A stretch of DNA of 64,000 nt from Escherichia phage phi456. Numbering within the stretch: position 1 is the first letter of the stretch; the number at the start of each line of letters is the position of its first letter. The stretch lies in the sequence record OR339795; one strand, written 5' to 3'. Made by a program: the position numbers and the translations under genes. Under the pieces are notes generated by a model. The model was not told where the DNA came from. It was given only the letters and a program-made list of their open reading frames with translations, and did no database searches. Below, one piece after another: positions 2,657-19,268 of this stretch.

Positions 2657-2825
2657 GTATTTTTAAGTCGCGAATGCTATCTTTTCGCATCATATTGACC
2701 TTTTAATCGTTCAGGCTTATAGTTTCGCCGTCGTAGCAAATTCTGCGACCGGGTTTAGCAGCCTGAATGATTGTGCGGACAGCCGCAGATATCCGATATT
2801 GCGGTATTTTTGTGTCCGTAAAACC

Positions 2826-2905
2826 GCGTTACGCCCAAATTATGGTGGGGCGTGATGGGGAGGCTTCGGCCTGCTGGTTTCACAATCGCCAGTCTGCTAA
2901 CCCCG
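2826..2905 (+). ncRNA. c4: candidate c4-like antisense RNA region of immI
   Basis: Position between Op51-like site and icd; stem cgccc/gggcg (2832-2852) and aggc-UUCG-gcct tetraloop hairpin (2861-2872); boundaries not determined. Confidence 0.25.
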
Positions 2906-2970
2906 TCACGTCCTGCCACCTGTTTAGCAGCGGGTAGCAGGTTGTTAAACCTGATTGTGAGGCCGTAACT

Positions 2971-3192: not shown

Positions 3193-4223
3193 AAAAACCT
3201 CTCGTCACCCGTAATGAAATAGCCGAAGCGATCGCCCTGCATACAACCTGTATGCCGACACGGGAGATCCCCGGCGCAATTGCTAACTATTTCATGATAA
3301 CCAGACGTTTTTATACCCGAACAGATAAGGCTGTGATCAGCAGGCTACTGATAGCCGAGATCAGGGATTATTTGATTGAACAAGGACGTCTACGTTACGC
3401 AACAGTGGCAGCAGAAATGAGAAAGGAGGCACATAGAATGACCGGTAATAATTTAAATGTTGAAAAACCAGCACCTGTTGCTTCAGCTACGCCAGCACCA
3501 GCCCTGAATGTCATCTCCAACACCGGAGACACAATCGACAGCCAAACATTGTTGAAGATGGTCAATGAGGCACGGAAATTATGTAGCGAAAAACCAGTTC
3601 GCAACAATGATTTCATTGCCAGAGTTAAGGATGAGCTTGAAGGAGAAACCTACGAAATTTTCGTAGGTCAAAAAAACGGCGCAGAAATAGATATTATAAC
3701 CATGACCTACAAACAAGCCCTGCGAGTTGCCGCGCGCGAGTCAAAAGCGGTCCGCCGTTCGCTGATCGACAAACTGGAAGAATTACAGCAGGCAAACTCC
3801 CCTACCCCATCGATCCCCCAGACATTACCAGAAGCCCTACGCCTGGCTGCCGAGTTAGCAGAACAGAAAATGCAGTTGGAACAACAGCTGGTGGCCGCAG
3901 CCCCTAAAGTCGATTTTGCCGACCGGGTATCAGTGGCCAATGGAATCCTGATCGGGAACTTTGCAAAGGTCGTTGGACTTAAGCAAAACGCCCTTTTCTC
4001 ATGGTTGCGCCAGAACGGCATTCTCATGGCTTTTGGAGCGCGCAAAAACGTACCGCGCCAACAGTACATCAACGCCGGGTATTTCACGGTGAAAGAGGTG
4101 GTGCTGGATGATGAAAATGGCTACCAGATACGGCTGACGCCCCAATTAACGGGTAAAGGCCAGCAGTGGTTAACTCGCAAGCTACTTGATGCTGGTTTGT
4201 TAAAACCAGTAGCAATAGGTTAA
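3189..4223 (+). CDS. ant1: antirepressor Ant1 (ANT/KilA-C C-terminal domain)
   Basis: 344 aa; C-terminal PKVDFADRVS...GNFAKVVGLKQN...GYFTVKE motif of phage antirepressor C-domain; immI synteny. Confidence 0.7.
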   Translation: MKKPLVTRNEIAEAIALHTTCMPTREIPGAIANYFMITRRFYTRTDKAVISRLLIAEIRDYLIEQGRLRYATVAAEMRKEAHRMTGNNLNVEKPAPVASATPAPALNVISNTGDTIDSQTLLKMVNEARKLCSEKPVRNNDFIARVKDELEGETYEIFVGQKNGAEIDIITMTYKQALRVAARESKAVRRSLIDKLEELQQANSPTPSIPQTLPEALRLAAELAEQKMQLEQQLVAAAPKVDFADRVSVANGILIGNFAKVVGLKQNALFSWLRQNGILMAFGARKNVPRQQYINAGYFTVKEVVLDDENGYQIRLTPQLTGKGQQWLTRKLLDAGLLKPVAIG

Positions 4224-4234
4224 CAAAAGAAAAA

Positions 4235-4261
4235 ACCTGCCAGCTAACTGGCAGGTTTCTG
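4235..4261 (+). terminator. rho-independent terminator after ant
   Basis: Hairpin acctgccag-ctaa-ctggcaggt followed by tttct. Confidence 0.55.
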
Positions 4262-4300
4262 AGCAGATCGTCCAACCCGATCTGGATCGAGTCAGAAAAA

Positions 4301-4317
4301 TTTGCTCTAATAAATTT
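4301..4317 (+). promoter_or_regulatory. C1 operator-like site (Op53-like) in front of kilA-repL
   Basis: tttgctctaataaattt, 16/17 match to the C1 operator consensus, about 70 bp upstream of kilA. Confidence 0.65.
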
Positions 4318-4386
4318 CGTTTTCTAAGTGCAAAGAATCACCATTTCGAGCTGGTGATTGAAGGTTGATGCAAATTTGGAGAAAAA

Positions 4387-5187
4387 ATGCAACAAACATT
4401 CAATGCGGATATGAATATATCAAACCTTCATCAAAATGTCGATCCTTCAACCACTCTGCCCGTTATTTGTGGTGTTGAAATTACGACCGACCGCGCTGGC
4501 CGTTACAACCTTAATGCTCTACACAGAGCGAGCGGACTCGGTGCCCATAAAGCGCCAGCTCAATGGCTAAGAACGCTGTCAGCTAAACAGCTCATCGAAG
4601 AGCTTGAAAAAGAAACTATGCAGAATTGCATAGTTTCGTTCGAAGGCCGTGGCGGCGGCACTTTTGCCCATGAATTGCTCGCTGTGGAGTACGCAGGCTG
4701 GATTTCTCCCGCGTTTCGGCTGAAGGTAAACCAGACATTTATCGACTATCGAGCTGGAAGATTACAACCTGCTATTCCGCAGAGTCTCCCTGAAGCTCTC
4801 CGTTTGGCTGCCGACCTGGCAGAGCAAAAGCAACGGCTGGAGCAAAAAATGCTTATGGATGCACCTAAAGTCGAATTCGCCGAACGCGTTGCTACCGCCA
4901 GCGGGGTTCTAATCGGCAACTATGCCAAAGTGCTCGGCCTGGGCCAAAACTATCTCTTCACTTGGTTGCGTGATAACGGAATTCTGATCGCAACCGGTGA
5001 ACGCAGGAACGTCCCCAAACAAGAATACATATCCCGTGGGTACTTCACCCTCAAAGAAACCGTGATCGATACAAGCAATGGAAGCAGGATTTCTTTCACG
5101 ACTCGTATAACCGGTAAAGGTCAGCAGTGGCTTATGAAGCGATTGCTTGATGCTGGTGTGCTGGTACCTGTCGCGGCAACGCGCTAA
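4387..5187 (+). CDS. kilA: KilA (KilA-N domain plus ANT C-domain)
   Basis: 266 aa; C-terminal ANT-like domain; sits directly upstream of a RepL-sized ORF, as in the P1 lytic replicon. Confidence 0.65.
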   Translation: MQQTFNADMNISNLHQNVDPSTTLPVICGVEITTDRAGRYNLNALHRASGLGAHKAPAQWLRTLSAKQLIEELEKETMQNCIVSFEGRGGGTFAHELLAVEYAGWISPAFRLKVNQTFIDYRAGRLQPAIPQSLPEALRLAADLAEQKQRLEQKMLMDAPKVEFAERVATASGVLIGNYAKVLGLGQNYLFTWLRDNGILIATGERRNVPKQEYISRGYFTLKETVIDTSNGSRISFTTRITGKGQQWLMKRLLDAGVLVPVAATR

Positions 5188-5216: not shown

Positions 5217-6062
5217 ATGCTGGCTAAAGTCACTTTCCTGAGCTGTATAACGATGAGCGATTTTACTTTTTCTGGCTATGAATTGGCCTGCTTTGTAACA
5301 CACTCCGGTCTATCCCGTAGCGCCGGGCATATCCTGTCGCAATGTGCAAATCTCGCGGCAACAACCAGTGAATACTTCATTCACAAGCCTCACCGCCTGA
5401 TCGCGGCAGAAACTGGTTATAGCCAATCAACCGTCGTTCGTGCATTCCGTGAAGCTGTAAACAAAGGAATTCTGTCTGTAGAGATTGTTATCGGCGATCA
5501 CCGTGAACGTCGCGCTAACCTGTACCGGTTTACACCATCATTTTTGGCCTTCGCACAACAAGCCAAAAATGCGCTGATTGAAAGCAAATTAAAGATCTCT
5601 TCAGCGGCAACCAAGGTTAAAGCTGTTCTCGCTAAGACATTGGCTTTATTTAATTTTTTATCCACACCCCCATGTCAAAATGATACCCCCTCCCCCTGTC
5701 AGGATGACGTGGCAATAAAGAATAAGAAGTCACAAGTTAAAAAAACAGAAAGATCAGTTTCCGGCGGTGCCGGAACGACCAGACTCAAAAAATTGACTTC
5801 ATGGATCGCTGAGGCAAAAGCAAAGGCTGACAATCTGCGGTTATCCAAAAAACGCGCTCAAAAACATGAGTTCAAGCAGAAAGTAGAGGCGACAGCGCGG
5901 AAATATGCTTACCTGAAGAACAAGCGTTCTCCTGATATTGGCGGGGTATCAAACTTCGATAATCTGCCGCATTGCATGACGGTAAACGAAGCTCTTAATG
6001 CGGTTTTAGCCAAAAATAAAGATAACGAACAATGGGGTATACCGGCAGGATTCAGAGGGTGA
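5217..6062 (+). CDS. repL: lytic replication protein RepL
   Basis: 281-aa ORF immediately after kilA; size and position as P1 repL. Confidence 0.65.
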   Translation: MLAKVTFLSCITMSDFTFSGYELACFVTHSGLSRSAGHILSQCANLAATTSEYFIHKPHRLIAAETGYSQSTVVRAFREAVNKGILSVEIVIGDHRERRANLYRFTPSFLAFAQQAKNALIESKLKISSAATKVKAVLAKTLALFNFLSTPPCQNDTPSPCQDDVAIKNKKSQVKKTERSVSGGAGTTRLKKLTSWIAEAKAKADNLRLSKKRAQKHEFKQKVEATARKYAYLKNKRSPDIGGVSNFDNLPHCMTVNEALNAVLAKNKDNEQWGIPAGFRG

Positions 6063-6358: not shown

Positions 6359-6439
6359 TACAATCGTTGCGGGTGCTTGAGGCTATCTGCTTCAGGCATT
6401 ACCCGAAAAGCAGATAGAAGAAAGCCCCAGATAACATTA

Positions 6440-6510
6440 CGCGTCCTGCAAGACGCTTAACATTAATCTGAGGCAATATCTATGCTTAGCATACGTAGAT
6501 TAGCCTCTTA
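6440..6510 (-). ncRNA. sok: candidate Sok-like antisense RNA
   Basis: Placed by analogy to hok/sok loci, antisense to the mok start region; boundaries unverified. Confidence 0.3.
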
Positions 6511-6688
6511 CCGACCAAAAGGTCAAGGAGAAGCAGGCTATGAAGCAGCAAAAAGCGATGTTAATCGCTCTGATCGTCATCTGTTTAACCGTCATTGTGA
6601 CGGCACTGGTAACGAGGAAAGACCTCTGCGAGGTACGAATCCGAACCGGCCAGACGGAGGTCACTGTCTTCACAGCCTACGAATCTGA
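6482..6688 (+). CDS. mok: Mok-like reading frame overlapping hok
   Basis: 68-aa ORF overlapping the hok frame in a different register. Confidence 0.5.
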   Translation: MLSIRRLASYRPKGQGEAGYEAAKSDVNRSDRHLFNRHCDGTGNEERPLRGTNPNRPDGGHCLHSLRI

Positions 6689-12264: not shown

Positions 12265-12355
12265 CAAGGTGAAATCGTGGCGATTTCACCTTGAAATTTT
12301 AGATGGATTTACTTTAAAAACAGTAGTTTAATAGTGAAATTTGAATGGCGAAAGT
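12265..12355. promoter_or_regulatory. parS: parS partition site
   Basis: ParB box motifs gtgaaat/tggcga/atttcac (12269-12290) and tagtgaaat...tggcga (12332-12353) flanking an AT-rich IHF-like core, just downstream of parB. Confidence 0.75.
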
Positions 12356-13357
12356 TTAAGGCTTCGGCTTTTTATCGAGGCTCTTTCTAAGGATATGCCC
12401 AATCATCCTGTCGAGTTCTTCCTGTAGCTCTTTTGAAAGTCGATTAAACTCATAAGAAAATGCACGGCCTTTCACGCGCTTCCTTGCAAAGCGATCCTTG
12501 TCCTCAAATTTCCATAATTCAGTAACTACGGACTTATCTTTAGAACCTTTATCCGTGAGTAGTGAAGCTTCCTTTGTTATCAAGCGCAGGATTTTATTTT
12601 TAACTTCATCTTCGGCCATTTCTTCAATGGATAAGATGTCGTTTATTTCCGGGGATATGTTTTGAATAAGCTGATCAAACTCTAAATTCTTGTTCCCCAT
12701 TTCGTCGCCAACAGCACAAAGCGTTTTGTAGTCCGAAAAGGTTAATTCCGACTGCACAGGGAAAAGGGCGACTAATTCTTCCGGAGCACTCGCTGCCTGG
12801 AGAGCACGCGTGACCTTCGCCTGAGATAGCCCTTCTTTGGCTGCAATATCCTTCTGACTCATCCCATCATTTTTCATTCGCATCAAACGCAGACCTATTT
12901 CTCGAATGCTGTGCTGCAATGCTGTCTGAACGTCTTTCGCTAAATTTTGCGCTTCCTGAACGCTGATCTCCTGGTCCGTGACTAAAACCCGCAACCCTAC
13001 GTTCTCTAAGATGGCAGAAGCTCGACGCCGGGAACCATCCAAAATTTCAATTTTCCCTGTAGCCCGTCTAACACCTATTGCAGGGTAAAATTGCTGATGC
13101 TTAATAGTGCTTCGGATACTTTTTAATGATTTTGGCGTAAGAGATGCCTGGTCACGCCCGTTGTTATGCTGATCAACAAAGGTATCGCTTTCTACCTGGT
13201 TCGGAGGTATTACCTCTTCAATAAATGTGGCCTGGCGACCAGTTGATAACTTGAATACCTGCTCGACTCGATCGCCAGAGGCTGAAGAACTATCAAATCC
13301 GCTTAATATTGAAGGATTAAGGGTTCGCCCAATTGTTGGTCTGTTTTTCTTTGACAT
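12356..13357 (-). CDS. parB: partition protein ParB
   Basis: 333 aa beginning MSKKNRPTIGRTLNPSILSGFDSS, recognised as P1 ParB. Confidence 0.9.
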   Translation of the reverse strand: MSKKNRPTIGRTLNPSILSGFDSSSASGDRVEQVFKLSTGRQATFIEEVIPPNQVESDTFVDQHNNGRDQASLTPKSLKSIRSTIKHQQFYPAIGVRRATGKIEILDGSRRRASAILENVGLRVLVTDQEISVQEAQNLAKDVQTALQHSIREIGLRLMRMKNDGMSQKDIAAKEGLSQAKVTRALQAASAPEELVALFPVQSELTFSDYKTLCAVGDEMGNKNLEFDQLIQNISPEINDILSIEEMAEDEVKNKILRLITKEASLLTDKGSKDKSVVTELWKFEDKDRFARKRVKGRAFSYEFNRLSKELQEELDRMIGHILRKSLDKKPKP

Positions 13358-13373: not shown

Positions 13374-14570
13374 TCAGTTAGATCTGATAAATTCAATACG
13401 GTCAAAAACTGCTTTAGCAAAATCTTCCGCAGCAATTCGCGCGTTCTTCAATGCATCAGCACTACCAACATACGTTGCCGGGTTAGCTGAAATAACAGTG
13501 TCAAAAGACTCGCCGCAGCGTTCAAAACCGTCAAGGCGAGGGAGGACAACATCAAGCATATCCCCACCGAACACTTCTTTAGCCAGGCTATGGCAATACT
13601 TATGGTCTGCCTTGTTACTCAACTTGGACATAAAACCAATGTTAGTTGCAAGCTGACACTCGCAGCCTTCATCCGAAATGAGTTTCACCAACTCAGGAAG
13701 GCGGGCAACGTATTTAAGCGATGAGTGGAAATCAACCGTTGCAGGCGGCAGAGGTGTAAACAGTATATTGGCCGAGGCCAAAGCATTTTTCAGGAAGGCG
13801 TCAAGGTGAGGACCACTATCAACGAGGATAAAGTCATAATCGCTCTTCAGCTTATCAATCACATTTTCTTTCAGGACTGCATGGATGTTCTGACCCGGTA
13901 GATGCTCATTGCACAGCTCTCTCCAATCGGATGCAATAAAGGCATCGTCAATCGACGCAGGCATAACGTCAACCCCAGGTACAACAGAAGGAACAATAAA
14001 CTCCTCTAACAGCTCTTCACGGCTTACATTCTGCAACATAGCCTGTGCAGATGTTGCGTTTACGATACCAATAGAGTGTTTATGGCTTAAAAACATCGTT
14101 GCTGAAGATTGCGGATCAAGGTCAATAACCAGAATCCTTAAATCTTCCATCAGAAGATGAGGATGAGCACGCATTGCATGCGCCAGAGAAACCGTCGATA
14201 CAGTTTTTGACACACCGCCTTTAAGATTGGAGATGAAAATCACATACGCTTCGCTGTAGCGATCCCGGTATTTTGGCACTCCGCGATGTTCATATATGTC
14301 AATGATGTTCTGAATTGACATCGCATATTTCATTGAAGAGCCAGCAGGGCGTTTATCGAAAACATAACCCTTTTCTTCCATTTCACTTACGGCATAGTCA
14401 ACGTTCGCACGAGTCAGTAGAGGCAATTTTGCCAGTGCCGCTTTCGCATAGACCTGGTAAAACTCGTTCGCGTGTAGCTCATCCTTTTGCAACTGTACTT
14501 GTTCAGTCAGAACATTGAGCATTCTATTTGCTCTTTGAGCAACCTTGTGAAGCTGGCTGGAATCACTCAT
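13374..14570 (-). CDS. parA: partition ATPase ParA
   Basis: 398 aa with Walker A KGGVSKT and N-terminal regulatory domain, recognised as P1 ParA. Confidence 0.9.
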   Translation of the reverse strand: MSDSSQLHKVAQRANRMLNVLTEQVQLQKDELHANEFYQVYAKAALAKLPLLTRANVDYAVSEMEEKGYVFDKRPAGSSMKYAMSIQNIIDIYEHRGVPKYRDRYSEAYVIFISNLKGGVSKTVSTVSLAHAMRAHPHLLMEDLRILVIDLDPQSSATMFLSHKHSIGIVNATSAQAMLQNVSREELLEEFIVPSVVPGVDVMPASIDDAFIASDWRELCNEHLPGQNIHAVLKENVIDKLKSDYDFILVDSGPHLDAFLKNALASANILFTPLPPATVDFHSSLKYVARLPELVKLISDEGCECQLATNIGFMSKLSNKADHKYCHSLAKEVFGGDMLDVVLPRLDGFERCGESFDTVISANPATYVGSADALKNARIAAEDFAKAVFDRIEFIRSN

Positions 14571-14708
14571 CGAAAGCCATCCTTTATGCTGTATTTTTGA
14601 ATTTAATTAAAAATGCTGCATAAAATAATAATGTATGCGTAGATGCTTGTACATAGCATTCTCTGCATGTTTGGTTCATTTTGCACGATTGAGAGTTACA
14701 AGGAGGGC
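14571..14708 (-). promoter_or_regulatory. par operon promoter/operator region
   Basis: AT-rich interval upstream of parA between the ORF269 terminator and the parA start. Confidence 0.45.
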
Positions 14709-14710
14709 AC

Positions 14711-14731
14711 AAAAAAGCCCCGTTCAGGGGC
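14711..14731 (-). terminator. rho-independent terminator of the T5orf172-like gene
   Basis: Minus-strand hairpin gcccctgaacggggc followed by T6. Confidence 0.65.
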
Positions 14732-14738
14732 ATCAGTG

Positions 14739-15548
14739 TTATTTGCTAAGAGCAGCGAATAATCGTTCGAAATCGATAGTATCTATAGCACGCGTAAGCG
14801 CCGGAAGTTCAGCCTCAAAGTACCCGTGTCGATCGTAAAAGAAGGGACCGAAGAGCGAGGCATGTTGGATTCTACTTCGCCCCAGCCCGGACACACAGTT
14901 AAGCCCATTACCGGCTAAAAGGCTAAAAAACTTCTCTGGATTATCGTGGTAAAGCTGGGAATCAATGGTGGCGGTTAACTCTTCCATAGGGAAGCACACC
15001 CGCCCTGTATCCCAGGGATATTTAGTCCGAAGCATAAACATTGCTTTCAGCAATTCACATTGAGCGCGGATCGCGTCCGGTTCATAGCCAGATATGGAGA
15101 CATAAGCCACGTCCCTCATTCCTGCGTCATCTTTGAAAGTCACGATAGAAGTAACATCCAGCTCTTTTTCGAAAGAGCAAGCAGCATCTACTGGACGCTG
15201 AAGTAAATCATTCGACTTAATGCGCTCGAGAATCCCTCCCCACATATCATTTAGATATTCGATATGAGCCAAAACCTTATCAAGACACTCTCGTGTAAAC
15301 CATTCAGTATGCCCGCCACCGGCGCTTTTCTCCCACGGCGCATTCCAGGGGAAAAAGGTTGCGTGTAAAGCCCGCTCAAGATTAACCATTGCCAAACGCG
15401 TACCACGATAGACCCGTGAAAGCGCAAAATCGGGACTCACTTGTAGCCCTTTAAACCGTGCCAATGGACCACATGAAATGCCGATTTTAAAAGTATCTCC
15501 GTTCTCTGGCACCAGAACGTAGAGGTAGTGTTGTTTCTCTTCTTGCAT
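14739..15548 (-). CDS. T5orf172/MUG113 (GIY-YIG superfamily) domain protein with unknown C-terminal domain
   Basis: 269 aa; N-terminal YLYVL...FKIGIS...LERALHATF...GGGHTEWF matches the T5orf172 signature; own terminator; lies between parA and the incA-like iterons. Confidence 0.6.
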   Translation of the reverse strand: MQEEKQHYLYVLVPENGDTFKIGISCGPLARFKGLQVSPDFALSRVYRGTRLAMVNLERALHATFFPWNAPWEKSAGGGHTEWFTRECLDKVLAHIEYLNDMWGGILERIKSNDLLQRPVDAACSFEKELDVTSIVTFKDDAGMRDVAYVSISGYEPDAIRAQCELLKAMFMLRTKYPWDTGRVCFPMEELTATIDSQLYHDNPEKFFSLLAGNGLNCVSGLGRSRIQHASLFGPFFYDRHGYFEAELPALTRAIDTIDFERLFAALSK

Positions 15549-15582
15549 ATCAATACCACTGCTTGATGAGAACCGCGCAAAT

Positions 15583-15839
15583 GTTGACTATGCGCGAAGG
15601 TTAATGTGAATAGTTGACTATGCGCGATGTGACTACAGTCAAAAGTTGACTGTAGTCGATTTAACTCCACCAAAGATCGACTATGTAAGATATTGTCGGG
15701 AGAAACGTTGACTATACGCGATGAAATGCCCCTAAAAGCCATCTCAATAGCGACTTGCAGAATATTGACGCCAGCAAAAATCCACCAGCGTCAACGAATG
15801 TCGCCTATAGTCAACTTCTCGCTATCGCATATAGTCAAT
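15583..15839. repeat. incA-like iteron array downstream of repA
   Basis: At least six copies of GTTGACTAT(G/A)CGCGA in both orientations (15583, 15613, 15676, 15707, 15801, 15825) plus a palindromic pair at 15629-15659. Confidence 0.7.
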
Positions 15840-15840
15840 A

Positions 15841-16761
15841 TTATGGATTGCGCTTATGGATCTGGAAGCCGATTTTCCTGCCGTTTTTTATCTCTGAAAA
15901 TTTAAGATATTCAATAGCTTCCAAATCTTTCATGGCTTTTCTGATAACGCTATTTTGCACGCTAACGGATGATTTGAGATTAAGCCTCGCTCTAAGGCGC
16001 TCAATGCTGACAGGTGCCGGGTTGGCGGGTAGAGCCTCAAAGAATGTATACAGTACCTTGGCCGTCTCTTTGCGCCCTAGTTTATCCAGCATCTTCAGCT
16101 TCAGGATTCGCTTATAGTCAACATAGTAAAGTTCAGATAGCTGTTTCTGCGGCTGGATCTCGATAACATCAAGCTCGGTATTCAGGCTGCTATATGCCAA
16201 CAAGTTGACGTTAATGTTATTGAGATGACCTTTTGCCGCCGGGAAGCGGAATTTGACAACTGTCTGCTGAATGCGTGTCAGAGAGTCATCAATACTTTTA
16301 CGGAACGCCTTTGAAAGGCGCTTACGTGGATAGCCGCATCGATCGGCAAACTCGGAGAATGGCAGGGTGATTATGCCGTCATCATCAGGTGCGTAGTCAA
16401 ACAACGCGGAGGTTATGCCCACCCACACCTTAAAATCAGTATCCATATCCAGGCGTGGACCATGAATTTCAATTCCCTCATAGCCTTCCTGCTCAACAAT
16501 TTTGAGGCTTGATAGTTCTTCAGTTGCGTTCGTTGTGTTTGTTGTAACTGACGATCCGCGACGTAGCGCCACATTGGTAGATTTTAAGGTTGGCACAAAC
16601 ACACCTAAGCGCAACAAAGCGATGGGTTGTATAGTGCTGTTGTTATTGGGCTTCAGGCTGTGGATTTCTCCTGTATTTCCTGCAACTTCTTCAACGCTAA
16701 GGAAGCCTTTACTTTCTTCCGGCATCACGGTTTCTCCATGTGTGGCGCGGCCTGACGTCAA
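15841..16761 (-). CDS. repA: plasmid replication initiator RepA (P1 RepA-like, divergent)
   Basis: 306 aa with blocks shared with P1 RepA (PIALLRLGVFVP, GPRLDMDTDFK) but diverged elsewhere; flanked by iteron arrays. Confidence 0.8.
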   Translation of the reverse strand: MTSGRATHGETVMPEESKGFLSVEEVAGNTGEIHSLKPNNNSTIQPIALLRLGVFVPTLKSTNVALRRGSSVTTNTTNATEELSSLKIVEQEGYEGIEIHGPRLDMDTDFKVWVGITSALFDYAPDDDGIITLPFSEFADRCGYPRKRLSKAFRKSIDDSLTRIQQTVVKFRFPAAKGHLNNINVNLLAYSSLNTELDVIEIQPQKQLSELYYVDYKRILKLKMLDKLGRKETAKVLYTFFEALPANPAPVSIERLRARLNLKSSVSVQNSVIRKAMKDLEAIEYLKFSEIKNGRKIGFQIHKRNP

Positions 16762-16806
16762 TTTGGATGGCTGTTATCAACAGCTGTGAATATTCAGACT
16801 CTAAAA

Positions 16807-17010
16807 TCGCTTACAGTCAATGTTTCTGTCGCGTATAGTCAACAATAAATCGCGTGCAGTCAACAATAAATCGTGCACAGTCAACATAAAATCGCGTATA
16901 GTCAATGTTGATCCCATTTCAGGCCAGTAATGACGCGGCTTACAGCGATCCGGGATCTTCTTTGGATCTTCCTAGGTTCTCTTTAGGATCTGTTTATTGG
17001 ATCTATGCTG
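16807..17010. promoter_or_regulatory. oriR-like plasmid origin: five iterons, GATC cluster, DnaA box
   Basis: Iterons tcgcNNNNagtcaa(c/t) at 16807, 16829, 16850, 16871, 16892 with 21-22 bp spacing; five GATC in 16938-16994; TTATCCACA on minus strand at 17001-17009. Confidence 0.7.
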
Positions 17011-17061
17011 TGGATAAGTTGAATAAACCGGCCAACAAAGCCGGTTGGAAGGAAGTCATAT

Positions 17062-17185
17062 TATTCTACGCTTTCGATAAGAAGACCATGTTCATAACAT
17101 TTAAGCTCATCGCCTTCATACAGGAATTGGTATCCAACACCACCATCTTCATGGACATTAGGGAATAACTCATAACTCACTGAAG
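17062..17185 (-). pseudogene. 3' fragment of a backbone gene truncated by IS629
   Basis: Minus-strand open frame ending ...YEGDELKCYEHGLLIESVE-stop abutting the IS629 end, followed by hairpin aaccggcc...ggccggtt. Confidence 0.3.
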
Positions 17186-17239
17186 TGAACCGCCCCGGGA
17201 ATCCTGGAGACTAAACTTCCTGAGAAAGAGGTAAACAGG

Positions 17240-17566
17240 ATGACTAAAAATACTCGTTTTTCCCCCGAAGTCCGTCAACGGGCAGTTCGTATGGTTCTGG
17301 AAAGTCAGGGCGAATATGACTCACAATGGGCGGCAATTTGTTCCATTGCTCCAAAGATTGGCTGTACGCCAGAGACTCTGCGCGTCTGGGTTCGCCAGCA
17401 TGAGCGGGATACCGGGGGCGGTGATGGTGGGCTCACCACCGCTGAACGTCAGCGTCTGAAAGAGCTGGAGCGTGAAAATCGTGAACTGCGCCGCAGTAAC
17501 GATATCCTTCGCCAGGCTTCCGCTTATTTTGCGAAGGCGGAGTTCGACCGCCTCTGGAAAAAATGA
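17240..17566 (+). CDS. IS629-like OrfA
   Basis: 108 aa [19 protein letters not shown]... with leucine zipper; IS3-family OrfA. Confidence 0.85.
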
Positions 17567-18362
17567 TGCCACTGCTGGATAAGCTGCGTGAGCAGTACGG
17601 GGTCGGACCGGTATGCAGCGAACTGCATATTGCCCCGTCAACGTATTACCACTGTCAGCAACAGCGACATCATCCGGATAAACGCAGTGCCCGTGCGCAG
17701 CGCGATGACTGGCTGAAGAAAGAGATACTGCGCGTATACGATGAAAATCATCAGGTGTACGGTGTGCGTAAAGTCTGGCGTCAGTTGTTACGGGAAGGTA
17801 TCAGGGTGGCCAGATGCACTGTGGCACGTCTCATGGCGGTTATGGGACTTGCCGGTGTTCTCCGGGGTAAAAAGGTCCGTACGACCATCAGCCGGAAAGC
17901 CGTTGCCGCAGGCGACCGCGTAAACCGTCAGTTCGTGGCAGAACGTCCTGACCAGCTGTGGGTAGCTGATTTTACTTACGTCAGCACATGGCAGGGCTTC
18001 GTCTATGTGGCGTTCATCATTGATGTATTTGCCGGATACATCGTGGGGTGGCGAGTCTCATCGTCTATGGAAACGACATTCGTGCTGGATGCACTGGAGC
18101 AGGCGTTGTGGGCCCGCCGGCCGTCCGGCACAATCCACCACAGTGATAAAGGTTCTCAGTATGTATCGCTGGCCTACACGCAGCGGCTTAAGGAAGCCGG
18201 CTTACTGGCCTCAACAGGAAGTACTGGTGACTCGTATGACAACGCGATGGCGGAGAGCATCAATGGTCTTTACAAAGCGGAGGTAATACACCGTAAGAGT
18301 TGGAAAAACCGGACAGAAGTGGAACTGGCCACACTAACGTGGGTGGACTGGTGGATTTGCCC

Positions 18363-19268
18363 CTATATTTCCAGACACCTGTTATCACTTAACCCATTAC
18401 TGGCCTGCTGCCGCAGATATTCCCGTGGCGAGCGATAACCCAGTGCACTATGCGGATGCCATTCGTTATAATGCTCGAACGCCTCTGCAAGGTTCTTTGC
18501 TGCCGTTAACCCGTCTGGTTTAGGCATGATACTGATGTAGTCACGCTTTATCGTTTTCACGAAGCTCTCTGCTATGCCGTTACTCTCTGGACTCCGCACC
18601 GCCGTGTTCTTCGGTTCAAGCCCCAACATCCGGGCAAACTGCCGTGTTTCATTAGCCCGGTAGCATGAACCATTATCCGTCAGCCACTCTACTGGAGACG
18701 CCGGAAGCTCGTTGCCGAAGCGGCGTTCCACCGCTCCCAGCATTACGTCCTGTACTGTTTCACTGTCGAAGCCGCCCGTAGTGACTGCCCAGTGCAGTGC
18801 CTCACGGTCACAGCAGTCCAGCGCGAACGTGACTCGCAGTTTTTCTCCGTTATCACAGCGGAACTCGAACCCGTCAGAGCACCATCGTTGATTGCTTTCT
18901 TTCACGGCCACTTTGCCAGTATGTGCCCGTTTCGATGGCGGTACAGCGGTTTTTCGCTCAAGCAACAGCGCATTCTGGCGCATGATCCGGTAAACACGTT
19001 TGGCATTGATCGCAGGCATACCATCAAGTTCGGCCTGTCTGCGAAGCAGCGCCCATACCCGACGATAACCATACGTGGGCAGCTCTCCGATAACATGGTG
19101 TATACGGAGAAGCACATCCGTATCATCTGAGTGACGGCTGCGGCGACCATCTTTCCAGTCATCGGTTCGTCTGAGAATTACGTGCAACTGCGCACGCGAC
19201 ACCCGGAGACAACGGCTGACTAAGCTTACTCCCCATCCCCGGGCAATAAGGGCGCGTGCGCTATCCAC
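18363..19268 (-). CDS. insD: IS2 transposase OrfB
   Basis: 301-aa DDE transposase recognised as IS2 InsD. Confidence 0.9.

Follow-up and report, generated by a model that had tools for sequence, protein, structure and literature searches.

The replicon at positions 15583-17017 lies in a P1-like phage-plasmid at the position of P1 repA, with gp22, gp23, parS, parB and parA on one side and upfA on the other, and the question it raises is whether it is a form of the P1 replicon or a different replicon carried in a P1 backbone. The phage-plasmid takes up the whole 64-kb stretch of DNA that was analysed (hereafter, the window), and its segment 9001-14672, which includes the sheath gene, gp23, parS, parB, parA and the par promoter, is 98.3% identical to phage P1 (AF234172). 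Upstream of the par region are a C4 antisense RNA, Ant-type genes, a hok/sok locus and the tail sheath gene. An earlier reading made from the letters alone (the sequence-only reading) had described a mosaic, in which P1-like par functions accompany a diverged RepA and iterons with a consensus of their own. Each of the elements that it named was located, either where it had been placed or a few bases away. We consider it very probable that 15583-17017 comprises the iteron arrays, repA and the origin of a p0111-type, iteron-controlled theta replicon of the Rep_3 family, which would work in a manner analogous to that of P1. The features are collected in Table 1.

The p0111 replicon is already known as an alternative to IncY in P1-like phage-plasmids, where it is common and routine in typing. 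Two replicase families at one position were typed as IncY and p0111 (Pfeifer 2021; PMC7969092), and this typing was reused in later work (PMC9603915, PMC11165635, PMC10879196), in which p0111 accounts for 63 of 119 P1-like phage-plasmids (PMC10879196) and JL22 is described as P1 with repA' (p0111) and one unknown gene in place of repA (IncY) (PMC9603915). In the searchable literature, no experiment on the p0111 replicon was found, and no paper combines "p0111" and "iterons". The present analysis contributes a map, at base resolution, of the p0111 origin and control array, of a kind that was not found in that literature.

Table 1. Features of the replicon and its surroundings, in window coordinates
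Feature	Position	Strand	Detail
parS centromere, P1 type	12269..12351	-	aligned to annotated P1 parS (L003 4913-4995)
parB, P1 type	12356..13357	-	333/333 aa identical to P1 ParB; Pfam ParB E = 1.6e-44
parA, P1 type	13374..14570	-	397/398 aa identical to P1 ParA; Pfam HTH_54 and AAA_31
Ppar promoter and operator	14571..14672	-	promoter scan: TGTACA-17-TATTAT at 14653-14625
Terminator-like hairpin after the T5orf172 ORF	14717-14731	-	inside the exchanged block
T5orf172/GIY-YIG-like ORF, 269 aa, inside the exchanged block	14739..15548	-	Pfam T5orf172 E = 4.7e-6
Distal incA-like array, five copies, opposite to origin iterons	15584..15722	+	spacing 30, 32, 31, 31 bp
Proximal incA-like iterons, two copies, origin orientation	15800..15838	-	15800-15814 and 15824-15838; adjoin repA stop codon
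repA, p0111 type, 294 aa, Rep_3-family initiator	15841..16725	-	GGAG 9 nt upstream of ATG
Two DnaA-box-like 9-mers, one mismatch each, between iterons and repA	16773..16793	.	predicted from sequence
Origin (incC-like) iterons, five direct copies	16806..16905	-	spacing 21, 21, 21, 22 bp
Cluster of five GATC (Dam) sites	16947..17003	.	16947, 16954, 16965, 16987, 17000; 4/5 in AGATCC heptamers
Perfect DnaA box TTATCCACA, outer end of origin	17009..17017	-	sequence match
Right edge of exchanged block	17018..17185	-	hairpin 17032-17048; upfA 3' remnant 17061-17185
IS3-family insertion sequence splitting upfA, outside the replicon	17186..18500 (right end approximate)	+	NCBIfam transpos_IS3, 17240-17566 and 17563-18438

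An origin of P1 layout with its own iterons

The iteron core TTGACTRTRCGCGAT has 13 matches in the 64 kb at three or fewer mismatches, and 12 of these lie within the 1.3 kb of 15584-16905; 100 shuffles averaged 5.4 matches over the whole window and never exceeded 10. The consensus computed from 11 copies is (G/A)TTGACT(A/G)T(A/G)CGCGAT, with TTGACT and CGA invariant in those 11, and it agrees with the form proposed by the sequence-only reading, GTTGACTAT(G/A)CGCGA. The P1 19-mer iteron, GATGTGTGCTGGAGGGAAA, has no match anywhere in the 64 kb at three or fewer mismatches. The claim that this replicon carries iterons of its own in place of the P1 19-mer is thus borne out.

The five origin copies (16891-16905, 16870-16884, 16849-16863, 16828-16842 and 16806-16820) are phased as had been claimed, in a spacing series identical to that of P1 incC. 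Outward of them, the GATC cluster is approximately 72% identical to its P1 counterpart, with a sixth GATC (16910) adjoining the outermost iteron, and the DnaA box follows. Both elements had been named from the letters, although the box extends beyond 17010, where the replicon had been taken to end. On the inner side, toward repA, lie two DnaA-box-like 9-mers, TTATCAACA on the + strand (16773-16781) and ATATTCACA on the - strand (16785-16793); a relative whose RepA is 85% identical (L004) has a perfect DnaA box at the matching position. Helically phased direct repeats that adjoin a rep gene, together with a DnaA box and a GATC region, are thus present here as in Rep_3 iteron replicons.

Downstream of repA, a further seven iterons, one of them degenerate, occupy 15584-15838. 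The distal five start at 15584, 15614, 15646, 15677 (the degenerate copy, 11/15) and 15708, and their orientation and phasing are like those of P1 incA copies 1-6, which likewise are opposite to the origin and spaced by approximately 31 bp (three turns). The proximal two are the counterparts of P1 incA copies 7-9. A 15-mer is also noted within repA itself, at 16107-16121.

Relatives of this replicon keep the layout of the origin, but each has an iteron core of its own. In L004, the core is TTGACTATGTGCGAT, with five copies at 21, 21, 21 and 22 bp; in L006 (RepA 49% identical), it is ATCTACTGTATGCTAC, with five copies at 21, 21, 21 and 23 bp accompanied by TAGATCC repeats; and in L007 (RepA 53% identical), it is TTGATGCTAGTCGAT, with copies phased at 21 bp. 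This is the pattern expected if initiators coevolve with their own sites, and it supports the repeats as putative binding sites of the initiator.

Compared with P1 and P7, then, the p0111 replicon has in common the gene order, the number and spacing of the origin iterons, five GATC sites in AGATCC-type heptamers, an outer DnaA box, DnaA-like boxes near repA, a downstream array with approximately 31-bp phasing in two orientations, and a Rep_3-family initiator of similar length. It differs in the iteron sequence, which is unrelated, in having seven rather than nine downstream iterons, in having one outer DnaA box where P1 and P7 have two in tandem, and in an extra T5orf172 gene between incA and Ppar, which P1 does not have. 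Because of the differences in the numbers of downstream iterons and DnaA boxes, the quantitative behavior of the replicon may differ from that of P1.

The initiator and the type of the replicon

Aligned over residues 24-294, RepA shares 42% identity with P7/P1 RepA (E = 9e-71). The sequence-only reading had described a RepA that shares only blocks with that of P1; the divergence stands, but the homology spans the whole length of the protein rather than separate blocks. Its Pfam Rep3_C (WH2) score is 27.3 bits (cutoff 21.1), while the Rep3_N (WH1) score of 22.0 bits is slightly below the 22.4 cutoff, compared with 25.7 for P1 RepA. The full-length identity to P1 RepA lends the WH1 assignment indirect support, and this homology is enough to place the protein in the family. 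A search of PDB chains with the RepA sequence gave no significant relative. When checked against P1 (IncY typing reference K02380), neither RepA (42% at the amino acid level) nor the iterons proved to be near-identical.

These comparisons bear on the possibility that the replicon is merely a diverged P1/P7 IncY allele, whose RepA still recognizes P1-type iterons and which belongs to the same replication-incompatibility group. In favor of such an allele, the genes stand in the same order as in P1, the origin is arranged and its iterons are phased alike, RepA is homologous over its full length, and the GATC/DnaA-box part is approximately 72% identical. Yet TTGACTRTRCGCGAT is unlike GATGTGTGCTGGAGGGAAA, of which the window has no copy at three or fewer mismatches, the 42% identity of RepA is to be set against the approximately 98% nucleotide identity between the replicons of P1 and P7, and typing schemes keep IncY and p0111 apart (PMC7969092, PMC9603915). 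We regard an IncY allele as extremely unlikely.

Typed between IncY and p0111, as had been suggested from the letters, the replicon is p0111. It is 98.2% identical to pO111_2 (NC_013370, from E. coli O111:H- 11128) over 14500-17185 (2686 nt), and the two RepA proteins are identical at 292 of 294 residues. We assume that the PlasmidFinder reference for "p0111" is pO111_2, and that AP010962.1 is the GenBank twin of NC_013370. AP010962.1 is given as the p0111 reference in the literature (PMC11165635). Another plasmid of this name series, pO111_3 (NC_013366), was considered as the reference and rejected, as it is an IncFII/enterohaemolysin plasmid without a p0111 replicon. RefSeq plasmids of E. 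coli (hundreds of them), Shigella and Klebsiella carry the replicon at 100% identity, and among P1-like phages the identity is 97.8-99.9% for SJ46, JL22, RCS47 and Ro157c2YLVW (97.8-98.4% for the first three). In pO111_2, SJ46, RCS47 and JL22, it occupies the same position between upfA and parA, with the same T5orf172 gene, and within the replicon there is no substantive difference; outside it, the neighboring upfA is here interrupted by an IS. Of 5426 complete E. coli genomes, 415 carry a p0111 replicon and 361 an IncY replicon.

Among 72,556 plasmids, the closest relatives of RepA group tightly together (392 records are at least 99% identical, and six are at 80-99%), and a gap down to 53% follows. 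Beyond the gap are proteins of Providencia and Proteus (53%), IncFIB-type initiators of Escherichia and Klebsiella (45-49%), and P1 RepA (42%). The major branches are pairwise 39-53% identical (the exception is P0015 versus P0011, at 65%), and since they are mutually this distant, p0111 RepA is best described as a deep branch within the P1-RepA/RepFIB family. A search among other plasmids for a donor of the cassette found none: the p0111 cluster, with a few variants at 80-95%, is followed directly by relatives at 53% or less. The 85% variant, L004, is another phage-plasmid contig of the P1/D6 group, flanked by Pmg-like and tail-tube genes, and its replicon has no other match in the phage collection.

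RepFIB replicons (IncF; P307/F/pO157 type) have initiators of the same family, and one might ask whether the replicon was recently captured, as an IncFIB replicon, from an F-like conjugative plasmid. GenBank phage records name the gene accordingly ("RepFIB replication protein A"), PLSDB/MOB-suite assigns a near-identical p0111 plasmid (L001) to IncHI1B, and RepA is slightly closer to the IncFIB-type initiators than to P1 RepA. A recent capture is nevertheless very unlikely. RepA identities above 60% are confined, among the 72,556 plasmids, to the p0111 cluster and the handful of 80-95% variants; with branches as distant from one another as given above, p0111 forms a deep branch of its own rather than part of FIB; and the closest variant, L004, is itself in a phage-plasmid. 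The iterons also differ from those of RepFIB, and the flanks are those of a P1-like phage-plasmid and not of F.

The exchanged block and its borders

The par region next to the replicon is of P1 type, as the sequence-only reading had it. In addition to the near-complete identity of ParA and ParB (Table 1), ParB boxes A and B of parS are all identical to the annotated P1 boxes, and the six substitutions in parS relative to P1 all fall in the spacer, three of them within the annotated IHF site. Partition specificity, as judged from ParB and from parS boxes A and B, is P1 type Ia, that is, incB of P1 and not of P7. The parA gene of P7 is only approximately 64.6% identical at the nucleotide level to that of L001, which serves here as a stand-in for the backbone of the window.

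Relative to P1, the exchanged block extends from approximately 14673 to approximately 17030 and includes the T5orf172/GIY-YIG-like gene. Its left junction is sharp, in that P1 homology ends at 14672 (L003 7316), 19 bp upstream of the annotated -35 element of Ppar. From there to 16922, there is no P1 homology, with the sole exception of 59 nt at 76% identity inside repA, and this stretch of 2250 bp corresponds to 1491 bp in P1. The right border is graded: homology returns weakly at 16923 (approximately 72% identity over the GATC/DnaA-box stretch, to approximately 17040), and then climbs to 86-100% from approximately 17040. The right-flank identities were computed via L001, an intact relative that matches the window at 100% over 15400-17100, and the coordinates of the upfA remnant were derived from L001 CDS 7662-8054. 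The match to both L001 and P1 ends at 17185, where the IS3-family element begins (an ALIL frameshift pseudoknot lies within it, at 17521-17637).

By sequence comparison, then, the oriR-repA-incA unit and the T5orf172/GIY-YIG-like gene are exchanged as one cassette relative to P1. The mosaic and the replicon exchange that had been proposed are upheld in this form, with P1 par kept at 98% nucleotide identity and oriR-repA-incA replaced by a homologous cassette of different predicted specificity.

The nearby IS element might suggest that the cassette is a remnant that no longer functions, and that another replicon, outside the window or elsewhere in it, maintains the phage-plasmid. The IS is 170 bp from the DnaA box, the region to its right is heavily rearranged and contains several IS copies, and the window shows only 64 kb of the element. 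The cassette itself, on the other hand, is intact: repA is complete and matches the reference (292/294), and the iterons, GATC sites and DnaA box are undamaged and match many P1-like plasmids of approximately 97 kb at 100% identity. A search of the 64-kb window for a second RepA-family gene found none, and the IS is beyond the origin, inside upfA. An inactive remnant is thus highly improbable, and we treat the p0111 cassette as the replicon of this element.

The T5orf172 ORF matches phrog_2876 (E = 1.6e-194) and, weakly, an endonuclease phrog, and RefSeq plasmid annotations call its product a GIY-YIG nuclease. In its N-terminus, we read YLYV...KIGIS...R...E as GIY-YIG-like motifs. The gene is codistributed with the replicon (401 plasmid records, compared with approximately 398 that have p0111 RepA at 80% identity or more), and the collection of 72,556 plasmids contains no relatives of it below 90% identity. 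It is intact here but annotated as two ORFs in pO111_2, which argues that it is dispensable for maintenance. A speculative and very unlikely reading of these features is that the gene encodes a free-standing, homing-type nuclease, whose cut in the IncY allele, between incA and Ppar, would lead to gene conversion of the entire replicon next to it. If so, the replicon cassette would be a selfish mobile unit, and homing could account both for the graded P1 identity on the right flank and for repeated IncY/p0111 switches, of which 17 were inferred in the Salmonella phage-plasmid tree (PMC11165635).

Control of replication, incompatibility and co-residence

Anatomy, homology, junctions, p0111 identity and prevalence are shown by the sequence comparisons above. 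The working of the p0111 replicon can be sketched by analogy to the P1 and FIB replicons, from which we infer the binding events, the copy-number control and the incompatibility. RepA, as monomers, would bind the five 21-bp-phased origin iterons, and host DnaA would bind the box at 17009-17017 (or the DnaA boxes together). The region of Dam-methylated AGATCC heptamers between the iterons and the DnaA box would be the site of opening, and would then be subject to sequestration after replication. The downstream seven-iteron array is predicted to titrate RepA and to handcuff the origin, giving a low copy number and replication incompatibility. In RepFIB, repA likewise lies between upstream and downstream iteron blocks, which are thought to act by handcuffing, and the downstream iterons of a FIB replicon by themselves displace the plasmid (PMC11983097). 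By occupying the origin iterons, RepA probably also keeps repA repressed. This autoregulation is drawn from analogy, since no convincing sigma-70 promoter was found on the repA strand: a consensus scan for a repA promoter within the iterons, where P1 has its promoter, found none, and the best candidate of a relaxed scan of that strand, TTGACT-17-GACTAT, has only 8 of 12 matches.

The sequence-only reading had expected incompatibility behavior that differs from P1, and this probably holds for the replication determinants (incA and incC) only. Because the iterons and the initiator differ, the replicon should no longer be incompatible with P1 and P7 through incA/incC, which is also the assumption made in the literature. 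Incompatibility through partition (incB) should persist with P1, since ParB and the parS boxes are those of P1, and should not reach P7, because the P7 par genes have diverged.

Complete E. coli genomes give a view of how often the two types are found together. Of the 5426 genomes, 774 contain an IncY or a p0111 replicon and two contain both, whereas 27.6 would be expected from independence. The hypergeometric probability of two or fewer is approximately 7e-11, a value that exaggerates the significance, as the genomes are non-independent samples. No single record carries both replicons, since the types occur in 415 + 362 = 777 records. A different replicon clearly does not make co-residence of IncY and p0111 elements common. 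This may plausibly be due to par functions or immunity that the elements have in common, or to superinfection exclusion.

IncY and p0111 elements, it is commonly stated, "can be maintained in one host". This statement should be taken with caution, since P1 parS and ParB are shared, and the co-occurrence of the two types at approximately 14-fold below chance in complete E. coli genomes adds to that caution.

Repeats around repA and related replicons

Apart from the twelve iterons, repeat features in and around repA include the three listed in the table. The first is an iteron-like 15-mer within the repA coding sequence, whose first 14 bases (TTGACTATAAGCGA) are kept at the same codon position in a p0111-like replicon on a 91-kb E. 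coli contig (L004, positions 4603-4618 for the repeat and 3700-5150 for the replicon; GCA_013513435.1, DABKFZ010000018.1). That replicon has just 77% nucleotide identity, yet it retains TTGACTATAAGCGA inside repA; the 15-mer could be a thirteenth RepA site, or mere coding constraint could account for it. The half-iteron palindrome of the distal array and the separate inverted repeat between the two iteron groups are each a candidate for a RepA-dimer site or a terminator.

The L004 replicon encodes a RepA 85% identical to that of the window and has the same origin layout, with iterons of the form TTGACTATGTGCGAT. It is flanked by PmgB-like and tail-tube genes, has no adjacent P1 par, and in the phage collection matches p0111 phages only (∼77%). 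It may represent a sister replicon type in another element of the P1/D6 group. A third iteron type, ATCTACTGTATGCTAC, occurs on another E. coli contig (L006, positions 3700-5050; Logan SRR29541129 contig 45), which encodes a RepA 49% identical to the window protein. Its origin contains five iteron copies at spacings of 21, 21, 21 and 23 bp and TAGATCC repeats every 11 bp, and the replicon adjoins tail-fibre-like and endolysin-like genes.

Other genes and insertions beside the replicon

The swapped block also contains a T5orf172/GIY-YIG-like ORF, whose product may be a homing-type nuclease. Plasmid records with this ORF number 401, versus ∼398 with the p0111 RepA, and the plasmid collection contains no relatives of less than 90% identity. 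The annotation of the reference plasmid pO111_2 splits it into two ORFs.

On the right (17186 to ∼30550), upfA is disrupted by an IS3-family element situated 170 bp away from the DnaA box. Beyond this element come IS2, an AraC/YdeO-like regulator, another IS3-family transposase, three IS1 copies and an AIDA-like autotransporter. The genes from mlp to dmt, which in P1 normally lie right of upfA, are missing within the 64-kb window. Because upfA of JL22, a P1-like phage with a p0111 replicon, also bears an insertion (PMC9603915), upfA may be an insertion hot spot.

In the upstream region, the table lists two RNAs and a 281-aa ORF. The latter presumably occupies the place of P1 repL, an assignment made by position and length only.

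Features in and around the replicon (window coordinates)
Feature	Position	Strand	Remarks
C4 antisense RNA with a1/b1 targets (ImmI)	2717-2923		
281-aa ORF	5217-6062		
sok antitoxin RNA	6371-6545		
Hairpin	14717-14731		accompanies T5orf172 ORF
T5orf172/GIY-YIG-like ORF	14739-15548	-	269 aa; between incA-like iterons and Ppar (par promoter)
Half-iteron palindrome	15628-15660		head-to-head; GACTACAGTCAA-AAG-TTGACTGTAGTC
Inverted repeat	15764-15797		TTGACGC...GCGTCAA
Iteron-like 15-mer	16107-16121	-	TTGACTATAAGCGAA; 2 mismatches
IS3-family orfA	17240-17566		
IS3-family ALIL pseudoknot	17521-17637		
IS3-family orfB	17563-18438		
IS1 copies	within 17186 to ∼30550		three, ∼770 bp each
AraC/YdeO-like regulator	20555-21355		
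AIDA-like autotransporter	24503-28000		

Replicon labels and co-residence with IncY

This repA is named variously across records as "RepFIB replication protein A", "replication helicase" or "RepB family", and the PLSDB/MOB-suite plasmid type is IncHI1B; all of these labels conflict with p0111 typing. Among 5426 complete E. coli genomes, p0111 is present in 415 and IncY in 361, and the two occur together in only 2, versus 27.6 expected under independence. Published statements expect the two types to be capable of sharing a host (PMC7969092, PMC11165635). A possible cause of the rarity of their co-occurrence is the retained P1-type parS and ParB.
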